Shown here in pieces: positions 3,132 to 56,536 of a stretch of 56,569 nt of DNA. The DNA lies in assembly GCA_937892025.1 (NCBI GenBank), contig CALAVA010000029.1:1-56569 (forward strand), written 5' to 3'. Source of the DNA: an uncultured Bacteroidales bacterium. GTDB taxonomy: Bacteria > Bacteroidota > Bacteroidia > Bacteroidales > WCHB1-69. The position numbers and the translations under genes are program-made. Below the pieces are notes generated by a model that saw only the letters and a program-made list of their open reading frames with translations, did not search any database and had not been told where the DNA came from. Every line of letters starts with the position of its first letter. Positions within the stretch are counted from its first letter, which is position 1.

Positions 3132-3160
3132 TTGGTACAATATTTGATAGCATAATTTTG
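3132..3160 (+). promoter_or_regulatory. -24/-12-like motif plus TAATTTTG box
   Basis: TTGGTAC-AATAT-TTGAT, then TAATTTTG (fits the Bacteroides -7 TAnnTTTG), about 25 nt upstream of ATG 3183. Confidence 0.5.
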
Positions 3161-3182
3161 AAAACATTTAGAATTTAAAAGT

Positions 3183-3437
3183 ATGGCAGAAAAACTTATG
3201 ACATTCAAGCACACCAAAGACGGTATGCTGACAGTTGAAAATCAAAAAGGAGATTTCATCTTGAAAAACGAATTTCTTGGCGTATTGCACGAGATTATTT
3301 CAGAAAAGGAAAGAGTACTTGCAAACTATTCAAGTGAAGATGACACAAGAAAAGAGGAAGTATGGTTTAGAATAACAAAAGCCGAATATGATGCTCAATT
3401 GGATTTACTTGAGAAACTGAAAAAAATGGTTTATTAA
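3183..3437 (+). CDS. Hypothetical protein
   Basis: 84-aa ORF directly downstream of the promoter-like motif, tightly followed by the next gene. Confidence 0.6.
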   Translation: MAEKLMTFKHTKDGMLTVENQKGDFILKNEFLGVLHEIISEKERVLANYSSEDDTRKEEVWFRITKAEYDAQLDLLEKLKKMVY

Positions 3438-3440
3438 AAA

Positions 3441-4124
3441 ATGAGTTTAAGACATTACGATAGTATACCAAGAGAACAGGACTATGGTGCGTTGAATGGC
3501 GAAATGGTTTTTGGCTTCAATAAACTTGATGGCCAAAATTTCTGTGTCCAATATAAGCCAAAGCATAAAATATGGGGTCCTTGTGGCTCACGTACAAGAA
3601 CCGTTGATGAAAACGATGAGCAATTTGGCGAAACTGTAAAGTACTTTAACAATTCAAAGTATAAGAACATTTTAGAGGAAATTGTTGCGAACAACAGAGG
3701 AAAGAAACAAATCTTCAATGGCGTTGAAGAAATGACTTTTTATTTTGAATGGTTTGGAGAAAATTCATTTGCAGGAAAGCATCAAGAAGGTGATGAAATG
3801 CACTTGGCTCTTATTGACGTGTTTATGAAAAAACGTGGATATATGGAACCAAAAGACTTTGTGGACTTGTTCTATGAAAGTGGCATTGTTTTACCAGATT
3901 TGGTCTATAATGGTCCGTTGAACGCTGAGATTATTGATAAAATTAAGAATAACGATTGGACCCAAGAAGGCTGTGAGTTTCCTTATGTAAAGGAAGGTGT
4001 TGTATTCAAACGTTCAACATTACTTCCAGGTCAGCGTAGACCTTCAGTTAAGGTTAAGACAAAATGGTGGCTGAATAAGCTATATTCAATGTATAGTGAA
4101 GAAGAATGCAAAATTTTGGAATAA
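3441..4124 (+). CDS. ATP-dependent RNA ligase (minimal nucleotidyltransferase domain)
   Basis: Ligase motifs I 'NKLDGQN', III 'FYFEWFGE', IV 'EGVVFK' and V 'KVKTKWW' in canonical order. Confidence 0.7.
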   Translation: MSLRHYDSIPREQDYGALNGEMVFGFNKLDGQNFCVQYKPKHKIWGPCGSRTRTVDENDEQFGETVKYFNNSKYKNILEEIVANNRGKKQIFNGVEEMTFYFEWFGENSFAGKHQEGDEMHLALIDVFMKKRGYMEPKDFVDLFYESGIVLPDLVYNGPLNAEIIDKIKNNDWTQEGCEFPYVKEGVVFKRSTLLPGQRRPSVKVKTKWWLNKLYSMYSEEECKILE

Positions 4125-4135
4125 TCTTAAATAAT

Positions 4136-4264
4136 ATGAGAAAGGTAATTGAAGAATTAAAAAAAGGATATGAAATTGGAGTTCATGATGGAAAAGAAAA
4201 AGCAAAAATAGAATTCCAAGAATCTAATAAAAGCTCAGATTTACATAACAAGACATTCGGATGA
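4136..4264 (+). CDS. Small hypothetical protein (42 aa)
   Basis: ATG 4136 to TGA 4264, with an ATGA overlap onto the next gene. Below the ORF-track cutoff. Confidence 0.35.
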   Translation: MRKVIEELKKGYEIGVHDGKEKAKIEFQESNKSSDLHNKTFG

Positions 4265-4569
4265 TTAGAAAAGTATATGCAGTAGAATGTGACTTGTGTG
4301 GAGAACAACAAAATTTTGTAACAATTGATGATGTTTCAAAGTATTATTGGCTCTATAGACTAAAGAAAATAAATCCTTTGTCTGATGAACTATATCTAAG
4401 AAGCAAGAGCCATATACCATTCAAATATTTAGCCTTTTGCTGCGAAAACTGTAAAGACAAGTATTTTGAGGAAATGCCTGAAGACATTCCACATTACAAG
4501 AAAGTTGGAAAGTATGACCAAAAAGAAGTGTTTAATAAAATAATGACATATGAACCTGAAAATAAATAA
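4261..4569 (+). CDS. Hypothetical protein, zinc-ribbon-like
   Basis: Cys pairs 'CDLCGE' and 'CENCKDKY'; 102-aa ORF. Confidence 0.6.
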   Translation: MIRKVYAVECDLCGEQQNFVTIDDVSKYYWLYRLKKINPLSDELYLRSKSHIPFKYLAFCCENCKDKYFEEMPEDIPHYKKVGKYDQKEVFNKIMTYEPENK

Positions 4570-4572
4570 TCA

Positions 4573-4899
4573 ATGAAATACTCACAATTACCTCCAACTA
4601 TATACGAAAACGGAAAAATATATTTTCTCATTTCAAGAGAGCTTAATGATTCTTCCATTGGTATGAAGGGATGGTGGTCGTTTGAATACTCTGAAAGTAA
4701 CGATGAAGTAACTCTTCCGGCAGAAGCAACCGATGGACGGTCTATATACTATCTTATTAGTGTTGAAGAAACAAAAAAAAAAGCACAAAATTCATTATTA
4801 GAAAAACTAAACGAAACTAAAGAAATACTAACTAAAAAAAGAAAAGAGGAAATAATGAAAAAGTGGAAAGATAAGATTAATAAATTCAAAAAGAAATGA
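4573..4899 (+). CDS. Hypothetical protein
   Basis: 108-aa ORF with a 4-nt gap from its neighbour and an overlapping stop/start with the next gene. Confidence 0.6.
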   Translation: MKYSQLPPTIYENGKIYFLISRELNDSSIGMKGWWSFEYSESNDEVTLPAEATDGRSIYYLISVEETKKKAQNSLLEKLNETKEILTKKRKEEIMKKWKDKINKFKKK

Positions 4900-5252
4900 A
4901 AATTGACATTAGATTTTATAAGGAAAATGATAATTGGTATGCAGATGTTCCAAACCACACAAAAGAAGAAAATGAAATGGTGATGGGCTCAGATAACGCA
5001 CTTGACTGGCTTCTTGATTCAGCAAATAACTGGAGAGATGAAGAAAAAAACGAGATAACTCTTACTTTATCAGATGAAGATACAAATGAATATGTTTTTC
5101 ATTTCAATAGAACAGAACACGATGATGATGGCGCTTATTACCAAGCATGTGGAGATTATGATTTACTCTATCCTATATGGATATGCAATGTAACGCACGA
5201 TGTGTTTGGAGAGCATCCTGAAGACCTTTATATATTGAAAATTAAGAGTTGA
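4896..5252 (+). CDS. Hypothetical protein
   Basis: 118-aa ORF with an ATGA overlap to the upstream gene. Confidence 0.6.
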   Translation: MKIDIRFYKENDNWYADVPNHTKEENEMVMGSDNALDWLLDSANNWRDEEKNEITLTLSDEDTNEYVFHFNRTEHDDDGAYYQACGDYDLLYPIWICNVTHDVFGEHPEDLYILKIKS

Positions 5253-5255
5253 AAA

Positions 5256-6320: not shown

Positions 6321-7385
6321 ATGAAGTGGCCGAGACAATTTATTACAAGAGAAGATGGTACTGATGTAGAAGCACAAGCGCCATTGATTATATCAGCAAG
6401 CAGAAGCACTGATATATCCGCTTTTTACAGCGATTGGTTTTTTAACCGACTTAAAATCGGATATTCAGCATGGATTAATCCGTTCACAAAGGAAAAAAAC
6501 TATATTGCTTACAATAAATGCAAATTTATAGTATTTTGGTCTAAGAATCCAAATCCATTGATTCCACATTTGGATGAGTTGAAAGAACGTGGCATTGGTT
6601 GTTATGTTCAATATACATTGAATGACTATGAAAAAGAAGGACTTGAAAAAGGTGTGCCATCATTGGATGAAAGGATAGAGACATTCAAAGCACTTGTTGA
6701 CAAATTAGGGAAAGGTAATGTCATATGGAGATTTGACCCATTAATACTTACTGATGAAATTACAATTAATATTCTGCTTGACAAAATTAAAAAAATAGGA
6801 GATAAGTTACTTGGATATACCGATAAATTAGTATTCAGTTTTGCTGACATATCAACGTACAAAAAGGTACAAAGTAATTTAACAATCAACGGAATACATT
6901 ATCAAGAATGGGATGATGAATCAGAATTAAAATTTGCAGAAGCATTGTCTGAATTAAATAAAAGTTCAAAATGGAATTATAAACTTGCAACTTGTGGAGA
7001 AAAAGTTGATTTGTCTGAATTCGGAATTGAGCACAATAAATGTATTGATGATGAACTAATCACAAAGATATCATATAAAGACAAAGAACTTATGGACTTT
7101 CTTGGAATTAAAATAAAATGTGTTGATGATTTTATATTTGGCTCTGATGACATGCCAAAAGACGCTATTGTAATCAATAGTGATTATTATGGAGTCAGAA
7201 GTAAAAGCAATAAAGATACTGGCCAGCGTGCTTTATGTGGATGTATTGTAAGTAAAGACATTGGACAATATAATACATGCCCACATATGTGCGAGTATTG
7301 CTATGCTAATTCTGATAAAACACTTGCAGCAGGTAATTACGGGCTTTTTGTACTTAATGGCGGATTAGGTGAAACAATTATTTGA
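6321..7385 (+). CDS. DUF1848-like Fe-S protein
   Basis: C-terminal 'CGCIVSKDIGQYNTCPHMCEYCYAN' cysteine cluster. Start moved to ATG 6321, just after the upstream stop. Confidence 0.55.
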   Translation: MKWPRQFITREDGTDVEAQAPLIISASRSTDISAFYSDWFFNRLKIGYSAWINPFTKEKNYIAYNKCKFIVFWSKNPNPLIPHLDELKERGIGCYVQYTLNDYEKEGLEKGVPSLDERIETFKALVDKLGKGNVIWRFDPLILTDEITINILLDKIKKIGDKLLGYTDKLVFSFADISTYKKVQSNLTINGIHYQEWDDESELKFAEALSELNKSSKWNYKLATCGEKVDLSEFGIEHNKCIDDELITKISYKDKELMDFLGIKIKCVDDFIFGSDDMPKDAIVINSDYYGVRSKSNKDTGQRALCGCIVSKDIGQYNTCPHMCEYCYANSDKTLAAGNYGLFVLNGGLGETII

Positions 7386-7427
7386 TTTTAAATTTAATTA
7401 TTTGTATAATTATATAAAAAGAATATT

Positions 7428-8446: not shown

Positions 8447-8494
8447 AATATTTTGTTATAAGAAATAAAAATTGTATATTTATATTAAATTTAA

Positions 8495-14503: not shown

Positions 14504-14713
14504 TTGCAATTTAGTTTCACTCTTTATAGCCAAAATATAGAAAATATAATTAATAGAGATTTAGTTAAAAAGAAGTTGTGTGATGAAAATGGGATAAAAT
14601 TAATTTATTATACAAATTTAAAAGATTTTGAAAATAAAAAAGAAAATTTGTATATTAGCAAAAATGATATATTAAATTTTATAAATAATGAAAGATTATT
14701 ACAAAATTCTTGA
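14504..14713 (+). pseudogene. C-terminal remnant of a Vsr/DUF559-like endonuclease
   Basis: 'NRDLVKKKLCDENGIKLIYYTNLKDFE' parallels 'RDDVKQKLCKEKGINIIYYTNINYE' of the 9274-9584 remnant. No ATG start; overlaps the dnaJ start. Confidence 0.45.
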
Positions 14714-15776
14714 AATAACAGATGATGAAAAAAAACTTAATAATGAAGAATTTGCATCTGTATGTAAAAAGAAATATCATTCTTTAGCTTTAAAATTACA
14801 CCCTGATAGATGGGCTAATTCAAGTGAAAAAGAAAAAAAAGAAGCTGAAGAAAAATTTAAAGATGTTGCTGAGGCTTACGAAGTTCTTTCTGACCCACAA
14901 AAACGTGCGCAATATGATAGTGGTGGAATGGATTTTGATTTTGGCGGATTTGACCCAATGGACATTTTCAGAAGAATGAGTGGAATGGGAGGTGGCTTTG
15001 GAAACGACCCATTTGCAAGCGTGTTTGGAGGTGGACAAAGAGTTAATAAAGGTAGTGATATACACGTTGAAGTAACCCTTACATTGGAAGAATGCTATAA
15101 GGGTGGTAAAAAGTCTGTTCAAGTTCAAAAGCAAAAAGAATGTTCACATTGTAATGGAACTGGCTCGTCTGATGGAAGAACACATGTGTGCCCTGTTTGT
15201 AAAGGAAGTGGAATGGAATCAGAGATGAAGCAATTTGGGCGTGGACAATTTAGTGTTATGTCGCATCCTTGCTCAAAATGCCACGGAACTGGTAAAGATA
15301 CTTCATATACTCGTTGCAAGCATTGCAATGGTAGTGGATTAAGTTATGAATATGTGACTGAGCAAATTGACATTCCAAGGGGTATTGATAACGGAATGGC
15401 GTTTAGAGGTGAAGGAAAAGGAAATGCGGCAGAAAGAAATGGAATTAATGGCGATTTGATTGTTCACGTTAAAGTTGCAAAAGACAATTATTTTGAAAGA
15501 CCAGATACTTTGAATTTAATTCATTATGAATCAGTTCCATTTGCGGAGGCTTTACTTGGATTTAAAAAAGAATTTAAATGCATTGACGGAAGTAAAGTGA
15601 CAGTAAATGCACATGAATTAACAAAGCCGGGAGAAGCATTCATTTTCAAAGGGAAAGGTATGCCTGATGTAATGGGAAGTGGAAGAATTGGTGATTATGC
15701 CGTTGTTATTAATTATGAATTACCAAATAAATTAACAAATAAGCAAAAAGAAATACTTAAAAAGTTCTATGAATGA
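14688..15776 (+). CDS. dnaJ: DnaJ-type co-chaperone
   Basis: J domain with 'HPD', a G/F-rich linker, four CxxCxGxG zinc-finger repeats and a C-terminal substrate-binding region. Confidence 0.9.
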
Positions 15777-16614
15777 AGTTAAAATTGCATTAGTAACGAT
15801 TACAAGGCTTGGAAACAAATATCTTAGAGAGTTTATTGAATACTATCTAAACATTGGTGTTGACAAGATATATTTTTATGATAATAACAGATGGAGAGAA
15901 GAAAACGTTATGGATGTAGTCAGTGACTATGTTAATAATGGCCTTGTTGAAGTGATTTATTTTGGAAATGCCGAGGGAAGAATACAAGAAATTGCATATC
16001 AAGATTTTTATAACAATCACGGAAATGAATATGATTGGATATGCTATTTTGATGATGATGAATATGTTGTTATAAACAGCAACGAAAACCTTAAAAATTT
16101 TTTATCAAATCCAATGTTTTGTGATAAAAATGGAGTTTCTTTTCCAATGATAAATTATTCAGATTCTGGCGTTATTGTTAACAACAAAAACACAAGGCTT
16201 GATGTTTATACACAAATTAAAAATAGAGGAAAAATATGGGCCAATAGTTTTTATAAGACAATTATACGTGGTGGATTAAATGTTACATATATAATTGGAA
16301 AATATGAAGGGGATGATAATATCTATGACAATTCTTTCCACGTTCCTGTTGTTGACTTAAAAGTCTATAACAACATTGTTGATTGTGACGGAAATGAAGT
16401 TACATATTGGGTTACAATGAATGAAACATATAATGGTTATTTAAAACATATTCCCACAGGCTGTATTGACGATTTTATTAATATGAAAATGAAAAGATGT
16501 TGGCCTGGACCAGAAAGAACGGATGTTAAATTTGATTATGAATATTTTTCAAAATACAACAATCCAACTAACGAAAAATACCAATATTATATAGAGCATA
16601 CAAATCTTGAATGA
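15769..16614 (+). CDS. Glycosyltransferase (GT-A fold, GT2/GT92-like)
   Basis: '[35 protein letters not shown]' and the DxD-like 'FDDDEY'. Confidence 0.5.
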
Positions 16615-27699: not shown

Positions 27700-27710
27700 A
27701 CTTTTTAAAA

Positions 27711-44287: not shown

Positions 44288-44307
44288 TTTGGCACGATTA
44301 TTGTAAG
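44288..44307 (+). promoter_or_regulatory. -24/-12-like motif
   Basis: TTTGGCAC-GATTA-TTGTAAG, 64 nt upstream of ATG 44371. Confidence 0.5.
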
Positions 44308-44370
44308 TAACACTATTGTATAACCAATTAGTTGGCAAATAAGAGTATATGAACATAAAGTAAAGAAACT

Positions 44371-44661
44371 ATGACACAAGAAGAAATAATGGCCTATGAC
44401 AAGATGATAATAGAAATGTGTTCACAAGTTGACCCAAAGTCTAAAAACATTTTTATGCCAATACCAAAGGGCGAGGAATATAGGTACATGTGTTTTCAAT
44501 TAGCACAAGGTTACGAAATGGATTACATCTCATTTCCTTATATATTAGTCAATGAATTTGGCGAGGGTGAACATGTCGATTCTTTTAATAGCAGACATCC
44601 AAATTTTGCACAAGACATTTCTGATTGTAGAACATGGTGGAAACAGAAAACAAAGTATTAA
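44371..44661 (+). CDS. Hypothetical protein
   Basis: 96-aa ORF. Confidence 0.6.
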   Translation: MTQEEIMAYDKMIIEMCSQVDPKSKNIFMPIPKGEEYRYMCFQLAQGYEMDYISFPYILVNEFGEGEHVDSFNSRHPNFAQDISDCRTWWKQKTKY

Positions 44662-48855: not shown

Positions 48856-49148
48856 ACAAAATCTATGTAAAGACATACGATGAATATCTTCAATTCAAGA
48901 ATTGGTGTGAAATACAATCTGAATTAGAGGATAAGTATGGTAAGAAAGTAAAACTTACCAACTATCTTAGAAAGGATTGGAAAAACAAGGAAGATTGGGG
49001 TAATATAACTCATCCAGTGATGAACAATCCTTATTATGTGGATGCCTATATCATTCGTAATTGTCCACTATCTAAACCATATATAGTAATAGGATACATC
49101 CCAAAAAATACTATATCTTATGAGGATATTTGTGGCGTAATAGTTTAA
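48843..49148 (+). CDS. Hypothetical protein
   Basis: 101-aa ORF, the last gene of the + strand block. Confidence 0.55.
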   Translation: MAAIDKIYVKTYDEYLQFKNWCEIQSELEDKYGKKVKLTNYLRKDWKNKEDWGNITHPVMNNPYYVDAYIIRNCPLSKPYIVIGYIPKNTISYEDICGVIV

Positions 49149-49299
49149 GAAAACATCGTTCTTACAAAAGTGTTCGAAAATATTGAAGATTTTCTTATAT
49201 ACAGACAAGAACTCTTAAACAAAGAAAGTAATAAGTAACTTAATCCCTATCGAAAAAAATAAAAAAGGTATAGTGAAAGATATAACTTTTGACACATTC

Positions 49300-49318
49300 T
49301 GATATCATTTTGATATCA
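49300..49318. repeat. Tandem palindromes TGATATCA-TTT-TGATATCA
   Basis: Two copies of a self-complementary octamer that can form an 8-bp hairpin. Possible terminator or binding site. Confidence 0.4.
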
Positions 49319-49360
49319 AATTTATACATAATTTAAACATTTTTTTTATGGCTGTTTTTT

Positions 49361-49949
49361 AATTATAATTTTAATTTTAATTGCTTAATAATAATTAAAT
49401 TATAATTACTTTATAATCAGTGCTGTATGAAGTGCTGATAATATGGATGTTATGCGGTGGGAAAAAGTGGGAGTTTTTGCATCTTTTTTTTATTTTAAAA
49501 AAGTGCCATTTTCGGCCATCAATTAAATCGGTATTTGCTGAACAAATTTTTTGTTAGTAAATTGGCGGTATTTTGGCGGTATTTTGGCAGAAAATTGGTG
49601 GATTTTAATTAGAATTATTCTGTGTGGGCTATAGCGGAAAAGTGTCAATTCTTTTGTGGCTTGTGATAATTTTAATTAAAATTTTTTAATTAGAAACAAG
49701 ATAAATTAGAATTACAATTAAAATTTAAATTCATTCTAAATAAAGCACTTACGGGGATGTGGTTAAAAAAAATAGGTCAAAAAAAAATTGGTTAAAATTT
49801 GTTTTTGTTAATTATAATTAAAATTAAGGTTTATGGGGATACAATTATAATTTTAATTTTCAGTAATGGGCCTAATAATAATTTTAATTAAAAATAAAAG
49901 GGCCCCATACTTGGAGCCCCGTAGATAATTTTAATTAGAATTTAAATTT
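49361..49949. repeat. Array of AT-only motifs (AATTATAATTTTAATT and variants) in a non-coding region
   Basis: At least 8 copies in both orientations (49361, 49386, 49665, 49703, 49808, 49841, 49873, 49924), separated by short G/C-containing words. No ORF of 60 aa or more. Confidence 0.8.
49559..49603. repeat. Iteron-like direct repeats
   Basis: ATTGGCGGT ATTTTGGCGGT ATTTTGGCAGA AAATTGGTGGA: four units with a period of about 11 bp. Confidence 0.7.
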
Positions 49950-50223
49950 CGTCATCGCCTTCGTAGGTATTATCATCTTCAGGGATGTTTGAGTCAAGAT
50001 TTTCACTTGGTTCATTATTATCATTGTTAACGTTAATATGAGTTCCAAAGCCTTTAATTCTATCAATGATTCCACAAACTTGGATTAGTAGGAATATAGC
50101 AGTAAAGAACAAAAGCAAGTTAATCAACAATGTTGAGAACGTCATCATTGTTGCTGAATAGAAGCATCCAATTGCTACAATGAGTAGCACGAAAACGAGT
50201 AATTCTTGTAAAATTTTTTTCAT
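49942..50223 (-). CDS. Small membrane protein with acidic C-terminus
   Basis: Two hydrophobic helices, then 'NDNNEPSENLDSNIPEDDNTYEGDDEI'. Confidence 0.6.
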   Translation of the reverse strand: MKKILQELLVFVLLIVAIGCFYSATMMTFSTLLINLLLFFTAIFLLIQVCGIIDRIKGFGTHINVNNDNNEPSENLDSNIPEDDNTYEGDDEI

Positions 50224-50304
50224 ATAATTAAAATTAGGTAATAATAAATAGTGTCCAATGGTATTAAAAAATTATAATTTTAATTAAAATTTTAATGGGT
50301 ATAT

Positions 50305-50354
50305 TGGAGTTTACTCTCCTAATCGCTAAGTGTGAGATGGAGTATACTCTCCTA
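50305..50354 (-). repeat. Two 17-nt direct repeats, each a small hairpin, in a long 5' leader
   Basis: In transcript sense, TAGGAGAGTA[T/A]ACTCCA occurs twice (GGAG-loop-CTCC), separated by 16 nt, within the roughly 225-nt leader of the 50223 gene. Confidence 0.6.
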
Positions 50355-50450
50355 TCCGTGGTTTTGCGTTCAGCCCCTGTGTAGCATTTAGCCATCCAAT
50401 TATTTAATATGTCAGGATTACTCCGGCGGCGATTTATTCATAACGAAATA

Positions 50451-50477
50451 ATATACATCAAAAATTGTGCCAAACTA
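50451..50477 (-). promoter_or_regulatory. -24/-12-like motif
   Basis: Minus sense: TAGTTTGGCAC-AATTT-TTGATGTATAT. Confidence 0.55.
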
Positions 50478-50496
50478 TTTGGATGGTATAAAAAAA

Positions 50497-50518
50497 ATAT
50501 GTACGCAAATGCGTATAT
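50497..50518. promoter_or_regulatory. Palindromic operator/UAS candidate
   Basis: TATGTACGCA-AA-TGCGTATATA, about 37 bp upstream of the GG of the 50451 motif. Confidence 0.5.
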
Positions 50519-50526
50519 ACCTATAT

Positions 50527-50552
50527 AAAAAAGGCCCATCTTTCGATAGGCC
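50527..50552 (-). terminator. Rho-independent terminator (minus strand)
   Basis: Minus sense: GGCCTATC-GAAA-GATGGGCC followed by T6, just downstream of the 50581 stop. Confidence 0.8.
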
Positions 50553-50580
50553 GCAATAATAAAAAGTATTTCAATTATAA

Positions 50581-51030
50581 TTATTGATTTATGTCAATGG
50601 ATTCATCAAATAATTTTGATTTCAATTCATTTGCTTTTTTAAGATACCATTGTTCCTTGTTGAAATCTTCAAGAAGTTTATTTTTCATTGCTTCAGGTGA
50701 ATCGTTTTTTCCGGGTTTGGTTCCCATTCTCATACGATACTTGTAAGCTGTCATCTTACACCATTCCATTGTAGCTTTTGTTCCCCAAATTTTTTCCATC
50801 ATATCTACGACTTCAACATCATAGTTATTATAATGTTGTGGGTGGTTAACCATTTCATAAGAAGTCTTGTTGTTATTATATGAGCCATTATCTGAAGAGT
50901 GATAATTATCAATAAGTTCTTTTGACTTTTTTATATATTCTAACCATTCGTCAGTCCTTGATGATACATTGGTATTTGAATTAATATGAATATTGTGTTG
51001 TAGCCTGTCGATTAATTTTTTTTCATTCAT
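50581..51030 (-). CDS. DUF3310-like protein
   Basis: 'VNHPQHYNNYDVEVVDMMEKIWG...AYKYRMRMGTKPG' resembles the DUF3310 signature (hP.HY ... KY..R.g.K). Confidence 0.6.
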   Translation of the reverse strand: MNEKKLIDRLQHNIHINSNTNVSSRTDEWLEYIKKSKELIDNYHSSDNGSYNNNKTSYEMVNHPQHYNNYDVEVVDMMEKIWGTKATMEWCKMTAYKYRMRMGTKPGKNDSPEAMKNKLLEDFNKEQWYLKKANELKSKLFDESIDINQ

Positions 51031-51150
51031 ATTGTAATTATAATTTTAATTATTATTTTAATAATAGAAGTATGTTTCTTAGTTCAATTTTTACTCTAAT
51101 TCAGACTCTGATTTTAGACTTTCTACGTGTATAATATATAATTTTTAATA

Positions 51151-52044
51151 TTATTTCTCAACTCTTGAATACATTAATTTTAATTTTTTCTCAGCGCTGT
51201 TCTTGAGTTGTCTAATTCTTTCTGAAGTAAGCCCAAGGGCCTCACCAATTTCCTCATTATTGCATGGCTTATTATATTCACCCATTCCGTATGCCATTTT
51301 AATAATAGTAGTTTCACGTTCCGGGAGTTTATCAATGATACGCTGTAACGTATACTTGGTTCCCTCTACTTCTGCTTTGTCAGCATAGTCGTTTTCTACA
51401 TAAGCATACTCAGTGAACTTCTTTGAATTCTCGAAGATGTACGTATCGTCATCAATGCTCTCTGCGGGGTCCTCAATGCGTTCAATCTTAGCTCCGAAGA
51501 TATCATTTCTGTCAGACAGCATAATACCGTAGTTTTCTTTCAGGATACGTTCTACTTCGAAAATATCTGGTTTAACACCATGGAGCCTTAAGTATTCCTC
51601 TTCAATCTTTTTTACCTTGGGCGTGATTCTTGCATTGTTAGCAGGCTTAACCATCAGATTCTCGTCATTCAGGAAATGGTTCACTGCTCTTCTTATATAA
51701 TACTGTGCATATGTGACAAACTTATTACCCTGACTGAGGTCAAAGTTATCAAATGTGTCGTAGAACCCTATGGTCCCAACACTGATAAGTTCCATTAGAA
51801 GTTCATTGTTGTTTTTGGCGTAGCAATTTGCCAAGTCATAGATAAACCTTTGGTGGGCCATTGCAATTTTCTTCTTGATTGCAATCTTTTCTGCTTCAGT
51901 TGCGTCATCTGAATAGTACTTCTCAAGAAGTTCCTTTTCCTCTTCCTTGGTTAATGGCTTGCTAATTGCTCCGTTGATATCCTTCAGATATGCTGAGACG
52001 ATATCATTCTTTTCCCTGATTTTGTTATACTTCTTAACGTTCAT
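51151..52044 (-). CDS. Sigma-70 family RNA polymerase sigma factor
   Basis: Region 2 'GTIGFYDTFDNFDLSQGNKFVTYAQYYIRRAV' and region 4 'EEIGEALGLTSERIRQLKNSAEKKLK'. Confidence 0.8.
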   Translation of the reverse strand: MNVKKYNKIREKNDIVSAYLKDINGAISKPLTKEEEKELLEKYYSDDATEAEKIAIKKKIAMAHQRFIYDLANCYAKNNNELLMELISVGTIGFYDTFDNFDLSQGNKFVTYAQYYIRRAVNHFLNDENLMVKPANNARITPKVKKIEEEYLRLHGVKPDIFEVERILKENYGIMLSDRNDIFGAKIERIEDPAESIDDDTYIFENSKKFTEYAYVENDYADKAEVEGTKYTLQRIIDKLPERETTIIKMAYGMGEYNKPCNNEEIGEALGLTSERIRQLKNSAEKKLKLMYSRVEK

Positions 52045-52070
52045 AATATAAAATTATTTTTGATTTACGT

Positions 52071-52092
52071 CTTATCAAATATCGTGCCATAA
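52071..52092 (-). promoter_or_regulatory. -24/-12-like motif (proximal, sigma gene)
   Basis: Minus sense: TTATGGCAC-GATAT-TTGATAAG, 27 nt upstream of ATG 52044. Confidence 0.55.
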
Positions 52093-52154
52093 ATGCAAAT
52101 TTCAATTAAATTTTTAATTTTTTTTGAAACAGCATAAAAGTAACGCTACAATAT

Positions 52155-52177
52155 AGAGCAAAAATTATGCCAAACTA
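52155..52177 (-). promoter_or_regulatory. -24/-12-like motif (distal, sigma gene)
   Basis: Minus sense: TAGTTTGGCAT-AATTT-TTGCTCT. This is the only copy with the canonical TTGC. Confidence 0.5.
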
Positions 52178-52189
52178 ATCAATTTAAAG

Positions 52190-52230
52190 AAAAAAAAGTG
52201 CCGGAATAGGACTTGAAGACTATACCGGCA
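52190..52230 (-). terminator. Rho-independent terminator (minus strand)
   Basis: Minus sense: TGCCGG-21-nt loop-CCGGCA followed by CT8. Confidence 0.5.
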
Positions 52231-52258
52231 AAACAGATACACATTATGTTCCACGTAT

Positions 52259-52525
52259 TTAAAATAACGACTTGTTCTGAACAAGAGGCCCGTGGAAGCC
52301 CATGGGATGGTATCGGTTGATACACTCCACCACTGCCTTAATTTTTTTGAGATAGAGGGAAAGACAGAAGGCCTCTTTGACTACTCCATCCATTAAAACG
52401 GTGGGTTTTCCATCAGGAAAATCATAAAAACAGAAAGCGAGAAAGACATTTCCGCGCTGTTTACTTTCCAAGGTTTTCACGCCCAAGTCTCTGCGCTTGA
52501 TAAAGGGCTTATTGGTTAGAGCCAA
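52259..52525 (-). CDS. Hypothetical protein in a G+C-richer island
   Basis: 88-aa ORF followed by a terminator. Composition differs from its surroundings, no motif was recognised, and it could be non-coding. Confidence 0.35.
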   Translation of the reverse strand: MALTNKPFIKRRDLGVKTLESKQRGNVFLAFCFYDFPDGKPTVLMDGVVKEAFCLSLYLKKIKAVVECINRYHPMGFHGPLVQNKSLF

Positions 52526-52627
52526 AATTTATTTGGCATCACCTGTGCTGAGGCTTGGAGATAGCACTTTCTACTATTTTTTTGTGATTGCATGAATAGT
52601 AATAATTGCTGTACGCTTTCTTCAGAG

Positions 52628-52699
52628 TAGCGGGGGGAGGACTCGAACCTCCGACTTCCAGGTTATGGGCCTGACGAGCTGCCTCTGCTCTACCCCGCA
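52628..52699 (-). tRNA. tRNA-Met (anticodon CAU) with initiator-like features
   Basis: 72-nt cloverleaf with anticodon loop CCCATAA and T arm GGAGG-TTCGAGT-CCTCC. It has a 1:72 U-U mismatch and A11:U24 (initiator-like) but only two G:C pairs at the base of the anticodon stem. tRNA-Ile2 (lysidine) cannot be excluded. Confidence 0.8.
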
Positions 52700-52841
52700 T
52701 CAGTTATCAAAGAACAAAAGTTATCAGAAAACATTTTATGACAAACACCATTGTTTTTTAATTAGTTGCTGTTAGTTTTCTTTTTATGTTATAAATATAC
52801 AAACTAATTTTAAAAAAACCAAATTTTTTTGTATTTTTTTT

Positions 52842-52918
52842 GTCCTCCCCATGGGCTCTAACCACGAACTGTATGGATATAAGCCATATGCTCTAACCAA
52901 TTGAGACTTAGAAGAGGA
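52842..52918 (-). pseudogene. Aberrant tRNA-like element related to tRNA-Ile(UAU)
   Basis: Acceptor TCCTCTT/GGGAGGA, anticodon arm TATGG-CTTATAT-CCATA and T arm CGTGG-TTAGAGC-CCATG. There are 5 nt instead of 2 between the acceptor and D stems, and the T loop is non-canonical. Confidence 0.4.
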
Positions 52919-52926
52919 TTTTAATT

Positions 52927-53328
52927 TTAATTCATATAGAATCCAATCTTTCTATTAAATGGTGTATTACCATCGTAGAAGTCCTTGTAAGCGAATTCAT
53001 ATATATGGCTTCCACTATTTTGCTTGGCTATTACTGTGATAGTATCCTTATCAACGGCCATCATATAGATATTCACGCCACTAAGAGAAATAGAGTCATT
53101 AATCTTTTCCATTGTAAAACAGGAACTTCCATCACCAAGATTAATATGGTATGTGCTGTCATTCAGTCTGTCAACAGCAATGATTGATTCTTGTTCCCAT
53201 TGTTCCTTCCATCTGCTTTCAATTATGGAATCTTTCACGACAATGTATAAAAGAAATCCAACACAAGCAATTCCAATTATAATTAAAATAAGCAATCCTT
53301 TTGATAATGAGTTTCTGTTTTCTTCCAT
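52927..53328 (-). CDS. Membrane-anchored hypothetical protein
   Basis: N-terminal TM 'GLLILIIIGIACVGFLLYIVV'; 133 aa. Confidence 0.6.
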   Translation of the reverse strand: MEENRNSLSKGLLILIIIGIACVGFLLYIVVKDSIIESRWKEQWEQESIIAVDRLNDSTYHINLGDGSSCFTMEKINDSISLSGVNIYMMAVDKDTITVIAKQNSGSHIYEFAYKDFYDGNTPFNRKIGFYMN

Positions 53329-53360
53329 TGTTTAAAGTTTTATAATTTCAAATTTTAATT

Positions 53361-53380
53361 ATACAATAATTATGCCAAAG
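53361..53380 (-). promoter_or_regulatory. -24/-12-like motif
   Basis: Minus sense: CTTTGGCAT-AATTA-TTGTAT, 33 nt upstream of ATG 53328. Confidence 0.55.
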
Positions 53381-53386
53381 TTTTAA

Positions 53387-53408
53387 ATATGTACGCAATT
53401 GCGTATAT
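53387..53408. promoter_or_regulatory. Palindromic operator/UAS candidate
   Basis: ATATGTACGCA-AT-TGCGTATAT, about 23 bp upstream of the GG of the 53361 motif. Confidence 0.5.
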
Positions 53409-53414
53409 TACTTG

Positions 53415-53753
53415 TAGCGGTGGCCGGACTCGAACCGGCACGGGCGCAATGCCCAGAAGATTTTCTTACTACACTTGCTTTTACACAAGCCATCTACTTG
53501 AGATGTTGTAGTCTGGACTATTTCTTCACCATGCAGTGATGTTTAGGTGTCTCGTATATAGTCTCTACGCCATTTTTATTAGAGAGCCATCGCCAAAGAA
53601 TGTGTCACCACATTCGAGGTTTCTGTTTGTTAGCGAGATTCTACATCCCAATATTAATTATCGTTTTCTCCTTTCGGAAAGGATGCACTCTTATTGCGAC
53701 CTTATTGGTCAACTTTCAAAGTCTGCCGTGTCTACCAATTCCACCACACCGCC
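53415..53753 (-). tRNA. tRNA-Leu (anticodon UAA) interrupted by a group-I-like intron
   Basis: The 5' exon (53753-53719, GGCGGTGTGGTGGAATTGGTAGACACGGCAGACTT) and 3' exon (53464-53415) join into an 85-nt class II tRNA. It has anticodon loop CTT|AAAA, a long variable arm and T arm GCCGG-TTCGAGT-CCGGC. Confidence 0.75.
53465..53718 (-). ncRNA. Group I-like intron (254 nt, no ORF) in the tRNA-Leu anticodon loop
   Basis: Inserted after U34 and ends in G. 'GUAGAGACUA' and 'AAGAAAUAGUCC' resemble the conserved J6/7-P7 and J8/7-P7' elements (GACUA/UAGUC pairing). There is also a GNRA-capped hairpin, GAAUGUG-GUGA-CACAUUC. Confidence 0.65.
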
Positions 53754-53788
53754 ATTATTTCAAAGAACAAATATGTACGCATTACTTG

Positions 53789-53863
53789 TGGGAACAGTAG
53801 GATTCGAACCTACGACCCTCTCGGTGTAAACGAGATGCGCTAAACCAACTACGCTATGCTCCC
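53789..53863 (-). tRNA. tRNA-Val (anticodon UAC)
   Basis: 75-nt cloverleaf with acceptor GGGAGCA/TGTTCCC, anticodon loop TTTACAC and T arm GTAGG-TTCGAAT-CCTAC. Confidence 0.85.
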
Positions 53864-53915
53864 AAATCATAGAGATAGATGTCTTGCCAAGTCGTTGACT
53901 TACCTCTACTACAAT

Positions 53916-53942
53916 ATTATTATTATTATTATTATTATTATT
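53916..53942 (-). repeat. (ATT)9 microsatellite, read as (AAU)9 in transcript sense
   Basis: Nine perfect units starting 2 nt downstream of the tRNA-Ile 3' end. Confidence 0.95.
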
Positions 53943-53944
53943 TG

Positions 53945-54018
53945 TCCTCTGGGATGGACTTGAACCACCGACCTTGAAGGTATAAGCTTCCTGCGCTAAC
54001 CAACTGCGCCACCAGAGG
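53945..54018 (-). tRNA. tRNA-Ile (anticodon UAU)
   Basis: 74-nt cloverleaf with acceptor CCTCTGG/CCAGAGG, D arm GCGC-AGTTGGTTA-GCGC, anticodon loop CTTATAC and T arm GGTGG-TTCAAGT-CCATC. Confidence 0.8.
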
Positions 54019-54040
54019 ATGTGTCTTGTAATATATAGAT

Positions 54041-54067
54041 TGCTCTAACCAACTGTGCTACGGGACC
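54041..54067 (-). pseudogene. tRNA 5' fragment (acceptor strand plus D arm only)
   Basis: GGTCCCG-TA-GCAC-AGTTGGTTA-GAGC-A has no matching anticodon or T arm and no 3' acceptor strand downstream. Confidence 0.5.
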
Positions 54068-54138
54068 TTAATAGGTTTTTCGTGATACGGTATCCTAAAA
54101 CAGTTTCGATGTATCACACAAGACCAACCTATAGGTTG

Positions 54139-54211
54139 AGCAGCATAAGGGAATCGAACCCTCACCCCCAGCTTGGAAGGCTGGTATACTAAACCGTTAT
54201 ACGAATGCTGC
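54139..54211 (-). tRNA. tRNA-Gly (anticodon UCC)
   Basis: 73-nt cloverleaf with acceptor GCAGCAT/ATGCTGC, anticodon arm CCAGC-CTTCCAA-GCTGG and T arm GAGGG-TTCGATT-CCCTT. Confidence 0.85.
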
Positions 54212-54272
54212 ATTGTCGGTTTTAAGGAGGCCAAAAACTCTCTTGGCTTTTTACATCCATTTGATTTATCAT

Positions 54273-54296
54273 CAATATACAAATTTTATGCCAAAA
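54273..54296 (-). promoter_or_regulatory. -24/-12-like motif upstream of the tRNA cluster
   Basis: Minus sense: TTTTGGCAT-AAAAT-TTGTATATTG, 62 nt upstream of the tRNA-Gly 5' end. Confidence 0.55.
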
Positions 54297-54340
54297 TTCA
54301 AATTATAATTAATATTTTTTTTTTAATTTTTTTACAATAG

Positions 54341-54356
54341 GTACGCATTTGCGTCT
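54341..54356. promoter_or_regulatory. Palindromic operator/UAS candidate
   Basis: GTACGCA-TT-TGCGTCT, about 57 bp upstream of the GG of the 54273 motif. Confidence 0.45.
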
Positions 54357-54540
54357 ATTGTTGTTCATTCTTGGCTCGTTTTGCCTTGATGGTTTCTCCG
54401 TAGCCGAACAAGAAGTAGAAGTTGTCAATGATATTAGCGATTGCTGACCATTCATAAAGGCCATTGGACGCGCCACCCGCCACAAGGCCAAATCCTGCTC
54501 CTATCAGATAATCAACCCAACCAAGGCCGACACAAAGCAC
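54355..54540 (-). CDS. Possible small glycine-zipper membrane peptide
   Basis: 61 codons from a GTG start; 'GLGWVDYLIGAGFGLVAGGASNG'. No ATG, in a G+C-richer patch, so coding status is uncertain. Confidence 0.25.
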   Translation of the reverse strand: MLCVGLGWVDYLIGAGFGLVAGGASNGLYEWSAIANIIDNFYFLFGYGETIKAKRAKNEQQ

Positions 54541-54714
54541 TTTTGGGAAACATAGCCTATTGGCTTACTCTAACTCCGAATAGTGGTAGTCCTACCCTTC
54601 CCCAAATATGTTTAGTCTTTAGTTCTAAGGCTTTCATTTTTGCTTTATAAATAAATAACATAACATTTTTATTTTAATTCAATATAGAGTTGTTAGCAAT
54701 TTTGTTGTTTGATG

Positions 54715-55146
54715 TTAAACTTCAAAAGATTCATACAACATATTCTTTTGGCTGTATGCTTCAATTATAAGAGCCTTGATTGTCTTCCATTGACTAAGGA
54801 ATTCTTCAAGATAGTCATTACGGAAGAACTGACAACGTGCAAAAGCACAAGGTTTCCGCTGCATACTTCCTCGTACAAAAATAGCGGTTTCCGTTGTGGA
54901 CATTGCAATATCGAACCCATTACCATGGCTTCCACATTCAAGGAAAGCCTTACCATTTTCAACGACAAGTTTTACCCAATGATATGGGTTATGACGGCAT
55001 TCAAATTCGCCATCAAGTGTTGGGTAGTTTTCTTCAATCCATCTTGCAACTTTGTTGAAGTTGTCGATAAGAATCGGATTCGATTTGTTTATTAAGTTGG
55101 TTTCGTAAATGTGTGAATCGATTTCGTGATATTCGTAATTTCTCAT
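54715..55146 (-). CDS. Hypothetical protein
   Basis: 143-aa ORF, the longest frame in this interval. Confidence 0.6.
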   Translation of the reverse strand: MRNYEYHEIDSHIYETNLINKSNPILIDNFNKVARWIEENYPTLDGEFECRHNPYHWVKLVVENGKAFLECGSHGNGFDIAMSTTETAIFVRGSMQRKPCAFARCQFFRNDYLEEFLSQWKTIKALIIEAYSQKNMLYESFEV

Positions 55147-55194
55147 AATTCGTTAGTTTTAATTTTTAAACAAATTAGTGTCTTTCTTTAACTT

Positions 55195-55374
55195 TTAGTC
55201 TTTTATCTCAGTGTAACCTTGTTCTTTGAGTAGGTCGATAACCATTTGTCTATACACTTTTGTTGGGAAACGCAATGCTTTCCACTCTCCCGTTTCAATA
55301 GTGTACATAATCCACCATTTTGCGCGACTCTTGCTTGGCCCAGAAAATAACTTAAATTTCTTTTGTTTTTTCAT
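55195..55374 (-). CDS. Small basic protein (59 aa)
   Basis: 'MKKQKKFKLFSGPSKSRAKWWIMYTIETGEWKALRFPTKVYRQMVIDLLKEQGYTEIKD*'. Sits 34 nt downstream of the 55408 motif; below the track cutoff. Confidence 0.5.
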   Translation of the reverse strand: MKKQKKFKLFSGPSKSRAKWWIMYTIETGEWKALRFPTKVYRQMVIDLLKEQGYTEIKD

Positions 55375-55463
55375 AGTGTGTGTGTTTTATTGGTTAGACA
55401 TTAAATTCATATACAACAATCGTGCCAAGATTACTTTTTGAAGTAACCTTTTATAGATTCTCT
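55372..55463 (-). repeat. Duplicated gene-end / promoter / 5'-UTR cassette, copy 1
   Basis: About 92 nt, roughly 90% identical to 56478-56569. Confidence 0.85.
55408..55430 (-). promoter_or_regulatory. -24/-12-like motif
   Basis: Minus sense: TCTTGGCAC-GATTG-TTGTATATG. Confidence 0.6.
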
Positions 55464-55691
55464 TGTATAAATCATACAAGCGCCAGAAAAGTGAATAATT
55501 TTCACGCTCTTTTCCCGTTCAAAGATAAACCTGCAAAGGTAGATATGATTGATATGATGATTGATACCGCCTTTGTGCAATTCAATCATATCGCTAATTC
55601 CACTATTAGACACCCACCAACAATCATTGTTTGACTTATAGTGCTTGTTAATTGCATCGTTGATTCTCTTAATTCTTTCAGTTTCTTTCAT
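55431..55691 (-). CDS. Hypothetical protein
   Basis: 86-aa ORF whose 3' end lies in the duplicated 92-nt cassette. Confidence 0.55.
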   Translation of the reverse strand: MKETERIKRINDAINKHYKSNNDCWWVSNSGISDMIELHKGGINHHINHIYLCRFIFEREKSVKIIHFSGACMIYTRESIKGYFKK

Positions 55692-55718
55692 AGTATTTAA
55701 TTTTAATTGTTGTTAATT

Positions 55719-55734
55719 GTACGCATTTGCGTAT
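55719..55734. promoter_or_regulatory. Palindromic operator candidate
   Basis: GTACGCA-TT-TGCGTAT, 28 nt upstream of ATG 55691. No TGGCAC motif lies between them. Confidence 0.45.
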
Positions 55735-55740
55735 ATTAAT

Positions 55741-56289
55741 TTAAGTCCACGCAAATTGCCAATCCAACTTTTTGAAGGTATCTTTCATTTGAACATACTT
55801 TTCATAGTTAGGCTCATCCTTATCCAAAAGGTTTCGCTGCCCATGTTTGGAAAGTTGGCTAATGGTCATAATGTTAGTTCCGTCATGATGATAGCCATAG
55901 ACAATGACTTCGCCATCCTTAAACTGAACCTTATAATCCAAATAGTCATTTGAAGATTGCAAGGCAAATTTGATAGCCTCGGTCAATGATGTGAAAACCT
56001 GCTCAATGTAGCCTTTTCTATGACCATTCCAAAGGCCAAGGTCAAAGGTAATCATGTAAAATCCATGCTCAGCCTTTGAAAAGTGGAGGTTATCAAAGAA
56101 TGTATCGTAATCAATTTCAGCCTCTTCGTAAACCCAACTCCAATAATCTTCTGAATATTCTTCTGAAGGCTCCATTTCGTTTTCCTTGCACCATTCAAGA
56201 TAGTTTTCATAGGAATAATCTTCATCATATCCTCTTCCACCACTTTGAATTAAGGTGAAGTCCTTTTTATTAAATTCTTGTTTTGCCAT
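55741..56289 (-). CDS. Hypothetical acidic protein
   Basis: 182-aa ORF. Confidence 0.65.
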   Translation of the reverse strand: MAKQEFNKKDFTLIQSGGRGYDEDYSYENYLEWCKENEMEPSEEYSEDYWSWVYEEAEIDYDTFFDNLHFSKAEHGFYMITFDLGLWNGHRKGYIEQVFTSLTEAIKFALQSSNDYLDYKVQFKDGEVIVYGYHHDGTNIMTISQLSKHGQRNLLDKDEPNYEKYVQMKDTFKKLDWQFAWT

Positions 56290-56300
56290 GATTTTAGTTT

Positions 56301-56480
56301 TTAGTTAAGTTCTCCGATTTCGTCAACTTCCATTTCATCACCATCAATGACTTCATTGTTGGTTCCTTCCCAACCACATTCGGGGCAAACATAGTCCGTA
56401 TTTGCGGTTTCGTAATTGTAATTGGATTCGCCTTGAACAAACTCATGGCCACATTCGGGACAATACATTTTCTCTTCCAT
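56301..56480 (-). CDS. Small zinc-ribbon protein (59 aa)
   Basis: 'MEEKMYCPECGHEF...YVCPECGWEG' has two CPxCG knuckles. Below the track cutoff. Confidence 0.55.
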   Translation of the reverse strand: MEEKMYCPECGHEFVQGESNYNYETANTDYVCPECGWEGTNNEVIDGDEMEVDEIGELN

Positions 56481-56512
56481 AGTGTTATGCTTTTATTGGT
56501 TATACATTAAAA

Positions 56513-56536
56513 CTATATACAACAATCGTGCCAAGA
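56513..56536 (-). promoter_or_regulatory. -24/-12-like motif
   Basis: Minus sense: TCTTGGCAC-GATTG-TTGTATATAG, a duplicate of 55408-55430. Confidence 0.6.

Follow-up and report, generated by a model that had tools for sequence, protein, structure and literature searches.

Promoters of the sigma-54 type are built from two short blocks, of which the -24 block is read by the RpoN domain and the -12 block by the helix-turn-helix of the sigma factor, and their polymerase strictly needs an AAA+ activator for DNA opening (PMC5095919). The nearest described set is SM4 of Flavobacterium psychrophilum, for which transcription start sites have been mapped. In this organism, sigma-54 drives groESL, dnaK, grpE-dnaJ, lon, htpG and clpB, with a high basal level of the chaperone cluster; at the six mapped promoters considered here, transcripts start 10-15 nt after the G of the -12 block, and five of the six lack the -12 C (Rfp1 TTGT, N_0010 TTGT, remF TAGT, groES CTGA and lon TTGA, as against panD GTGC; PMC9723704). 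The sigma-A promoters of Bacteroidota combine TTTG at -33 with TAnnTTTG at -7 (PMC7366714, PMC9723704). Here we analyse a 56.6-kb stretch of phage DNA (contig CALAVA010000029.1, hereafter the window, meaning all 56,569 nt), in which the sequence TGGYAY-N5-TTG recurs upstream of genes on both strands. Judged from its sequence, this motif is genuine and conserved and resembles a promoter, with the geometry and the consensus of sigma-54; it is carried by what appears to be a clade of large phages, probably infecting Bacteroidota, that have the sigma-54-type sequence in front of dozens of genes. We lean towards the view that the sites are promoters of sigma-54 type, read by the sigma-54 of the host or by an RpoN-like reader.

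The motif in the window and in related contigs

TGGYAY-N5-TTG matches the window 19 times, counting both strands, against 2.52 expected matches and a largest count of 9 in any shuffle. Fourteen matches lie in the 13.3% of the window that is intergenic, all 14 co-oriented with the next gene or tRNA; the remaining five, at 543, 12811, 26754, 43369 and 29611 (the last on the - strand), are weaker variants within open reading frames (ORFs). The fourteen correctly oriented copies reported in the original prediction were thus all recovered, at coordinates 1-8 nt away from those first listed. A position weight matrix (PWM) that was trained solely on 41 sites of a 302-kb relative and then run on the window gave the 14 sites scores of 15.3-27.7 and the in-gene copy at 26754 a score of 20.3, with the next best match at 11.3; shuffled window sequence yielded 1.4 hits at a score of at least 9.

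The two blocks are tightly coupled, bearing out the invariant spacing claimed earlier: a TTG follows at exactly N5 in 12 of the 14 intergenic TGGCAY words, compared to 1 of 40 in ORFs and a chance rate of 2.7%. Equally, the final C of the -12 GC is mostly replaced, as had been noticed, with TTGC at only one of the 14 window sites. One of the only two intergenic TGGCAY words without an N5 partner, the TGGCAC at 43040, has a TTGC at N8 (CTATGGCACAAAAGGTCTTGCAC, 43040-43062, + strand) and lies about 110 nt before ORF 43151-44026.

From the TTG to the next start codon or tRNA the distance is 31-67 nt at 11 intergenic sites and 114 nt at one, which is the more distant member of a tandem pair upstream of the phage sigma gene. 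Instead of a single long leader there are two apparent ones, at 33428 and 38034, where short ORFs of 37 and 10 codons begin 30 and 40 nt downstream. The sites examined for it follow terminator-like hairpins or a recurring palindrome, which agrees with the earlier remark that several copies come after terminators or repeats. The individual sites are as follows.

3133-3146, + strand: core TGGTACAATATTTG, 36 nt before ORF 3183-3437, which precedes RNA ligase gene 3441-4124; PWM 15.3
26495-26508, + strand: core TGGCACAGTTTTTG, 48 nt before RNA ligase ORF 26557-27699; PWM 25.8
26754-26767, + strand: good copy TGGCATAGTTTTTG within the RNA ligase ORF, a possible internal promoter or else a chance match; PWM 20.3
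31649-31662, + strand: core TGGTACAATATTTG, 39 nt before ORF 31702-31986; PWM 18.0
33428-33441, + strand: core TGGCACGGTTTTTG, with the 37-codon ORF 33472-33585 starting 30 nt downstream; PWM 20.8
38034-38047, + strand: core TGGCACGGTTTTTG, before ORFs at 38088 (10 codons) and 38127 (39 codons) and then ORF 38248-38649; PWM 17.1
41148-41161, + strand: core TGGCATGATTTTTG, 33 nt before ORF 41195-41722, within a class-2 promoter (see below) at 41138-41167; PWM 25.9
44290-44303, + strand: core TGGCACGATTATTG, 67 nt before ORF 44371-44661, leader box TGTATAACCAAT; PWM 27.7
50459-50472, - strand: core TGGCACAATTTTTG, with a terminator-like hairpin (50552-50533) and a palindrome (50515-50502) upstream; PWM 26.5
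50441-50418 and 50395-50264, - strand: upstream ORF (uORF) MNKSPPE* and the following ORF, both downstream of the core at 50459-50472
52076-52089, - strand: proximal core (P2) TGGCACGATATTTG, 31 nt before the sigma gene, invariant in 6 genomes
52159-52172, - strand: distal core (P1) TGGCATAATTTTTGC before the sigma gene, the sole TTGC copy of the window
53364-53377, - strand: core TGGCATAATTATTG, followed by TATAAT, 35 nt before ORF 53328-52927; PWM 23.2
54280-54293, - strand: core TGGCATAAAATTTG, about 68 nt before the tRNA-Gly/Ile/Val cluster, within a class-2 promoter at 54302-54274, conserved in contigs L199, L201 and L202
55414-55427, - strand: core TGGCACGATTGTTG, 39 nt before ORF 55374-55195, leader box TGTCTAACCAAT; PWM 21.2
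56520-56533, - strand: core TGGCACGATTGTTG, 39 nt before ORF 56480-56301, leader box TGTATAACCAAT; PWM 21.2

Five related contigs carry the same arrays, giving 140 sites over six contigs including the window. The sequence of relatives covered here consists of pieces totalling roughly 100 kb, with L003, L006 and L008 stemming from the 302-kb relative (Ga0247611_10000016, which is IMGVR_UViG_3300028591_000072); other contigs of the clade are JAEEGL015307195.1, Ga0247609_10000668 and Ga0310691_10001953. Sites are distributed as follows.

L003, 20.9 kb of the 302-kb relative: 23 sites, against 0.83 expected
L003, L006 and L008 stitched together, 35 kb of the 302-kb relative: 44 sites
L199: 22 sites
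L201: 21 sites
L202: 16 sites
L287, 7.7 kb: 18 sites

In these relatives there is about one site per 0.4-0.9 kb, before runs of small genes, and for 121 of the 140 sites the first ATG that opens an ORF lies within 80 nt, at a median distance of 36 nt (interquartile range 34-39 nt). Upstream of the sigma gene, both tandem cores stay the same across six genomes while their flanks vary; L203 has gained a small gene between the two sites, so that each of them now serves a gene of its own. As a negative control, 50 kb of the Lak-B1 Prevotella megaphage contained 1 match against 1.5 expected, and thus no enrichment.

The logo of 54 clade sites reads TT-TGGCAC-[G/A]-A-T-(T)-(T)-TTG, followed by T in 25, A in 17, C in 12 (the TTGC sites) and G in none. 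With the TGG of the first block and the G of TTG fixed by the search pattern, these pattern-defined sites have C after the TGG in 50 cases and A in all 54, and then C or T in 37 and 17. The middle of the motif is variable, and information drops sharply beyond the 16-nt core to weak downstream conservation with a preferred G 15 nt after the G of TTG. Over about 12 positions the consensus matches that of sigma-54, TGGCACG-N4-TTGC, except for the last C. Together, the conservation, spacing, orientation and upstream terminators indicate that the motif behaves as a promoter.

Several further elements accompany the sites. A conserved leader box, TGTMTAACCAATWAAA, is located 14-19 nt after the TTG (around 44320-44335, and 55385-55400 and 56490-56505 on the - strand) and recurs at many sites of L003, L199, L201 and L202; its position would place it at the predicted 5' end of the mRNA, and it is a candidate translation signal or RNA element. 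The uORF MNKSPPE* (ATGAATAAATCGCCGCCGGAGTAA, 50418-50441, - strand) is kept in the same four sequences, with a variant, MNKAPPAY*, at a second L003 site, and may encode a Pro-Pro leader peptide. A near-identical palindrome, ATATACGCAWWTGCGTAC, is found at 50502-50515, 53393-53408, 54343-54358 and 55718-55735; the 302-kb relative has 7 copies of it (L003/L006). In most cases a sigma-54-type site follows a few tens of nt downstream. Ordinary terminators would vary more than this palindrome does, and it may be either a target for protein binding or a short hairpin that terminates transcription. We also considered it as an upstream activator site and rejected this, as it accompanies only a minority of the sites and at one of them scored as a terminator-like hairpin.

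Host sigma-54 and other candidate readers

If the sites are sigma-54 promoters, a single factor with RpoN-like DNA recognition would read TGGCAC at -24 and TTG at -12, one helical turn apart. We infer RpoN to be this reader, most likely the sigma-54 of the host acting on host core RNA polymerase. Applying the F. psychrophilum start rule to the phage sites, transcription would begin about 13 nt after the G of TTG, which leaves about 23 nt of 5' leader. Genes placed under the control of the sites in the window would be small uncharacterised ones, RNA ligase genes, the tRNA cluster and the phage sigma gene, the last of these being predicted to be transcribed from the two tandem sites upstream of it. 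An AAA+ activator would be needed. It could be a host protein, such as the one that runs the sigma-54 chaperone regulon in Flavobacterium, or a phage protein that has escaped recognition. For a Bacteroidota host, the absence of the -12 C need not count against this reading, because five of the six F. psychrophilum promoters do without it as well. We also note that dnaJ belongs to the sigma-54 regulon in Flavobacterium, and that the window contains a full-length DnaJ.

The word is not confined to this clade. Among the matches listed, TGGCAY-N5-TTG is significantly enriched, beyond the hit that retrieved the locus, in at least 27 of 126 and at least 39 of 117 IMG/VR loci. The enriched contigs range from 31 to 54% GC, come with and without Shine-Dalgarno (SD) sequences, and for the most part have no protein in common with the window; TTGC and tandem copies at a distance of 25-29 nt are frequent among them, and some show divergent pairs where ORFs are few. 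Enriched loci include L084, L010, L094, L053, L025, L089 and L254, in addition to at least some 55 further IMG/VR loci. That the same consensus occurs in unrelated viral contigs, with SD-using hosts and without, suggests a universally conserved reader, and as genes with an RpoN box are almost absent from IMG/VR, this reader would be the host's. A scan of IMG/VR for the RpoN box RRTVAKYRE gave 5 stretches, all of them ordinary rpoN genes without motif clusters nearby and none on clade contigs; E. coli RpoN as an IMG/VR query, by a method that finds close relatives only, returned nothing.

One widespread viral group (L215, L220, L254 and about 17 related loci) has two copies of TTTGGCAC-N5-TTTGC followed by CTGCCATTTTGGCAG palindromes, in repeated modules next to the gene of a conserved protein of 219 aa that matches Sigma70_r2 weakly. 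These modules are often oriented against the called ORFs. Some clusters of the sigma-54 word may therefore not be gene promoters, and one can ask whether the clade sites, too, are operators, or decoys that titrate host sigma-54 or bind a phage regulator, with transcription starting elsewhere. Sigma-54 holoenzyme forms stable closed complexes, which could serve to block or sequester, and in other viral groups the word is present in both orientations, in ORF-poor stretches and together with TGCCA-N4-TGGCA palindromes. The clade sites, however, are all asymmetric and co-oriented with genes, they come after hairpins or the recurring palindrome where this was examined, their distance to the start codon is confined to a very narrow range, and for many of the genes downstream no further promoter-like element is present. 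We regard an explanation without promoter function as highly improbable.

The window contains a second promoter class, TTTG-N15-18-TTGTATAWT, with 10 matches against 0.22 expected, of which 3 overlap sigma-54-type sites. Apart from the copies around the cores at 41148 and 54293, given above, these are:

8452-8480, + strand: class-2 example TTTG-N16-TTGTATATT, 14 nt before tRNA-Gln
64-93, 608-637, 7381-7410, 14627-14656 and 35679-35708, + strand: other class-2 copies from the pattern scan
52794-52823, - strand: class-2 copy from the pattern scan
TTTG at 26485 to TTGTATATT at 26514, + strand: class-2 promoter around the 26495 core, from the pattern scan

As a stand-alone element, class 2 precedes the macro-domain gene, the methylase operon, tRNA-Gln, DnaJ and tRNA-Met, and a looser TTGG variant (20881) lies upstream of the Ro-like gene. 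Its spacing is of sigma-70 or sigma-A type, and it would be read by a sigma-70-family factor, be it host sigma-A or the phage sigma. At the three overlapping sites (26495, 41148 and 54293), which sit inside class-2 promoters with TGGCAY in the spacer, this would amount to dual promoters, and many sites may be dual in this sense; an upstream TTTG accompanies only 3 of the 14 window sites. Where TATAWT follows the TTG at offset 0, the sigma-54 and sigma-70 readings predict the same start point.

Several observations weigh against host sigma-54. The most immediate concern the activator: no enhancer-binding protein (EBP) was found by Pfam among the 37 largest window ORFs, regular expressions for GAFTGA, Walker A and the RpoN box in six frames revealed neither an activator nor RpoN in the window, and a hidden Markov model (HMM) from 22 phage-borne activators had no hit in the window, its relatives or the dense-motif loci. 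A scan of all IMG/VR for ELFGH..G[A/S]FTGA gave 82 stretches, none of them on clade contigs including the 302-kb one, with the limit that such signature scans, for EBPs as for the RpoN box, miss divergent versions. The earlier statement that no EBP is recognisable in the window thus withstood Pfam, six-frame motif and HMM searches alike. Nor do the 54 sites share an upstream activator motif between -45 and -20, and with sites so dense before seemingly early genes, the activator would have to be in its active state by the time of infection. Furthermore, TATAWT follows the TTG within 0-3 nt at 27 of the 54 sites, compared to roughly 1% by chance as a matter of rough arithmetic. Sigma-54 promoters do not need TATAWT, and at the three sites embedded in class 2 the sigma-70-type element alone could be the working promoter. 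In the L215-type modules the arrays often run opposite to the called ORFs, so that the word is not always a gene promoter. Finally, the host comparison comprises six promoters of a single species, and the actual host could belong to Bacteroidales rather than Flavobacterium; sigma-54 dependence is a prediction from the sequence. Given that neither a phage activator nor a phage RpoN was found, the simplest reading is that both sigma-54 and its activator are the host's.

The TATAWT element makes it conceivable that the sites are composite promoters of the sigma-70 family, in which TTG and TATAWT form a -10/-7-like core read by host sigma-A or the phage sigma, and TGGCAC-N5 is the box of a phage activator or appropriator that replaces the -33/-35 element, comparable to MotA. 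Consistent with this, the combined pattern of TGGCAC and TATAWT matches the window 6 times against 0.01 expected, the variable offset of 0-3 nt suggests two modules, class 2 stands alone at 7 places with the TTG and TATAWT it has in common with the motif, and the phage encodes an RpoD-like sigma. However, the half of the sites that lack TATAWT keep the same distance to the start codon, TATAWT-free clusters of the consensus occur in unrelated viral contigs of 40-50% GC, and TGGCAC, with only 8-11 bp to TATAWT, cannot be a -35 element. For an unrelated activator, moreover, agreement with the sigma-54 consensus at about 12 positions would have to be coincidental. We consider a composite promoter unlikely. 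The corresponding alternative in the original prediction, a composite with a TTTGTATAAT-like element, was right in that stand-alone class-2 promoters are real, three sites are embedded in them and TATAWT is present at half; it does not account for the other half, or for the fact that intergenic TGGCAY hardly ever occurs without TTG.

The original prediction also named the phage-encoded sigma factor as a possible reader, which we disfavour. This gene has the following properties.

51151-52044, - strand: sigma factor of the phage (297 aa), RpoD/SigA-like, with regions 2-4 of the sigma-70 family

The models and structures it matches best are those of RpoD/SigA, and it keeps the helix SERIRQ of region 4.2. 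An RpoD-like factor needs two elements about 17 bp apart. In the motif, TGGCAC is separated from TTG by 5 bp and from TATAWT by 8-11 bp, and across the 54 sites no element is conserved 17 bp after TGGCAC. Both the block gap of 5 bp and the RpoD-like recognition helix thus argue against the phage sigma. The -7 box of Bacteroidota, TAnnTTTG, was rejected as well, since its required T is present at 1 of 54 sites (A at 22, G at 31). Generic sigma-70 hexamer pairs are not clearly enriched in 49000-56569, with 44 against 35.3 (sd 4.5).

Another phage-specified reader, independent of host sigma-54, could be a divergent RpoN homologue, a novel specificity factor or a phage RNA polymerase encoded beyond the window. 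Such a factor would make a host activator dispensable, and there is room for it: the relatives, which reach 302 kb, lie mostly outside the sequence covered, and many window proteins match no family. The weak conservation up to about +15 after the TTG, with its preferred G at 15 nt, is also reminiscent of the long promoters of phage polymerases; a promoter for a single-subunit phage polymerase would be expected to show an uninterrupted conserved block of about 20 nt that extends into +1. Yet the RpoN box occurs on no clade contig and in just those 5 stretches of IMG/VR, no polymerase subunit family was detected among the 37 largest window ORFs, and a phage gene of the sigma-70 family implies a core enzyme of bacterial type. 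Sigma-54 itself would be the simplest explanation for why the motif matches the universal sigma-54 consensus, and we think a phage-specified reader quite unlikely.

Returning to host sigma-54, a stronger version of this reading holds that the clade runs a major part of its programme, with dozens to more than 100 promoters including those of tRNAs and its own sigma, through host sigma-54 without a canonical EBP. We put this forward as a possible but doubtful proposition. If true, the phage would hijack a constitutive or stress-activated host activator, such as that of the chaperone regulon, or carry a new kind of phage activator, or else initiate without any activator at TTG[T/A] promoters with TATAWT, where the A+T-rich TATAWT region may help. 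The sigma-54 site clusters of many other uncultivated phages would, in that case, reflect the same undescribed strategy.

The phage and its probable host

At 32% GC and about 87% coding, the window holds the sort of accessory genes that very large phages typically carry. Its RNA-repair set consists of a macro domain, a HAD 'Swiss-army-knife' RNA-repair domain, a Ro/TROVE-like RNA-binding protein and three RNA ligase genes of T4 type, two of which are downstream of sigma-54-type sites. Further genes encode DnaJ, SSB, a DNA methylase and the sigma-70-family sigma factor, next to five tRNAs and one weak tRNA-like sequence. Structural genes are absent from the window, and Rfam at gathering thresholds detected nothing in it except tRNAs.

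112-582, 3441-4124, 16611-17195, 20929-22578 and 26557-29213: RNA-repair set (macro domain, three RNA ligases, HAD_SAK_2, Ro/TROVE-vWA-like)
14688-15776: full-length DnaJ
52842-52915, - strand: weak tRNA-like sequence (Rfam tRNA 31.7 bits, no ARAGORN call), between ORF 53328-52927 and tRNA-Met

Searches for cultured relatives gave no close match: megablast of 20 kb against GenBank phages found none, tblastn of the sigma and the Ro-like protein returned distant matches only and no cultured relative, and blastn of one promoter with its leader against phages produced chance-level matches only. Identical copies of the phage sigma protein are present on contigs from bioreactor metagenomes. The close relatives, with sigma proteins 68-76% identical, are one IMG/VR contig of 302,581 bp and three metagenome contigs of 29-45 kb. 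A distant relative (L076 / L204, a 183.7-kb IMG/VR contig and a 98.7-kb human-gut contig), whose sigma is 26-28% identical, has DnaJ and three other proteins in common with the clade, and one perfect site, TTTGGCACGATTGTTGC, in the 11-14 kb covered.

An SD-like sequence precedes 1 of 67 window ORFs, and A is found at -3 in 60%. Few SD sequences together with A at -3 are the translation-start style of Bacteroidota (PMC9723704, PMC7366714), indicating that the host is probably a member of this phylum. The types of sample from which the relatives come (bioreactor metagenome, several JGI metagenomes and, for the distant relative, human gut) enter into the same assignment.

Comparison with known systems

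To our knowledge, the known phage transcription programmes rest on host sigma-70-type promoters, on phage sigma factors or appropriators, and on phage polymerases. Sigma-54 is the sole bacterial sigma factor that cannot open DNA without an ATPase, and a phage staking much of its expression on it would need guaranteed activation at infection. If confirmed, this would be a way of taking over the host that is new for Bacteroidota, a group in which sigma-54 has been shown, for Flavobacterium, to drive the chaperone regulon. The activator would then have to be one hijacked from the host or a phage protein not known so far; mutants of rpoN or of the activator should resist the phage. The sites would also provide a strong, compact and regulated promoter set for Bacteroidota genetics.

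Among phages, the early promoters of T4 and the host-takeover module of SPO1 offer one precedent, with many near-identical strong promoters before small genes, often after terminators. The sites described here likewise each precede one or a few small genes, but are of the -24/-12 type, in contrast to the activator-free sigma-70/sigma-A -35/-10 promoters of these arrays. The middle promoters of T4 combine a MotA box at -30 with a sigma-70 -10 element and work together with AsiA. They resemble the phage sites in having an upstream box near a -10-like element at slightly variable spacing, and differ from them in that half of the phage sites lack the -10-like element and that the upstream box is bipartite, has a fixed spacing and equals the sigma-54 consensus; no relatives of MotA or AsiA were seen in the phage. 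With the sigma-A promoters of Bacteroidota the motif has in common that most copies end in TTTG, and class 2 (TTTG-N20-TATAWT) has about sigma-A spacing, whereas the T of 'TA' is found at 1 of 54 sites and TGGCAC has no counterpart in sigma-A promoters.

Sigma-54 promoters come nearest. The SM4 promoters of F. psychrophilum, such as those of groESL, lon and remF, have the same TGGCAC block, N5 and TTG block, and in five of the six considered here the -12 C is likewise replaced by T or A (PMC9723704). Like sigma-54 promoters, the phage sites are T-rich just upstream, carry a purine after CAC and have a predicted leader of ordinary length. Unlike the known sets, they are phage-borne, very dense, placed before tRNAs and a sigma gene, and in half of the cases combined with TATAWT, and no activator gene or upstream activator site is recognisable in the phage sequence covered.

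Use of sigma-54 by phages would not in itself be restricted to this clade. Relatives of a 257-aa AAA+ protein are present on 68 viral contigs, and the activator signature in 82 IMG/VR stretches; an example is the following.

L095 7675-8448, - strand: stand-alone sigma-54 activator of 257 aa with only the AAA+ domain and the motif GSFTGA (further copies of about 250 aa in L129-L196 and L330-L404)

Several of the loci inspected have TGGCAC-N5-TTGC just downstream of the activator gene. The gene content of these contigs suggests that uncultivated phages can use host sigma-54 by means of stand-alone activators. Papers on sigma-54-type promoters in phage genomes were not found in the full-text literature searched, where coverage of subscription journals is thin. 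The recurrence in IMG/VR of both sigma-54-consensus clusters and stand-alone activator genes makes this a wider question. The activator-bearing phages have one to three sites and their own activator, in contrast to the dozens of sites and no recognisable activator of the window clade. As a sequence element, the motif is of a known kind; what would be new is a large phage that relies on it as one of its main promoter classes and has no recognisable activator.

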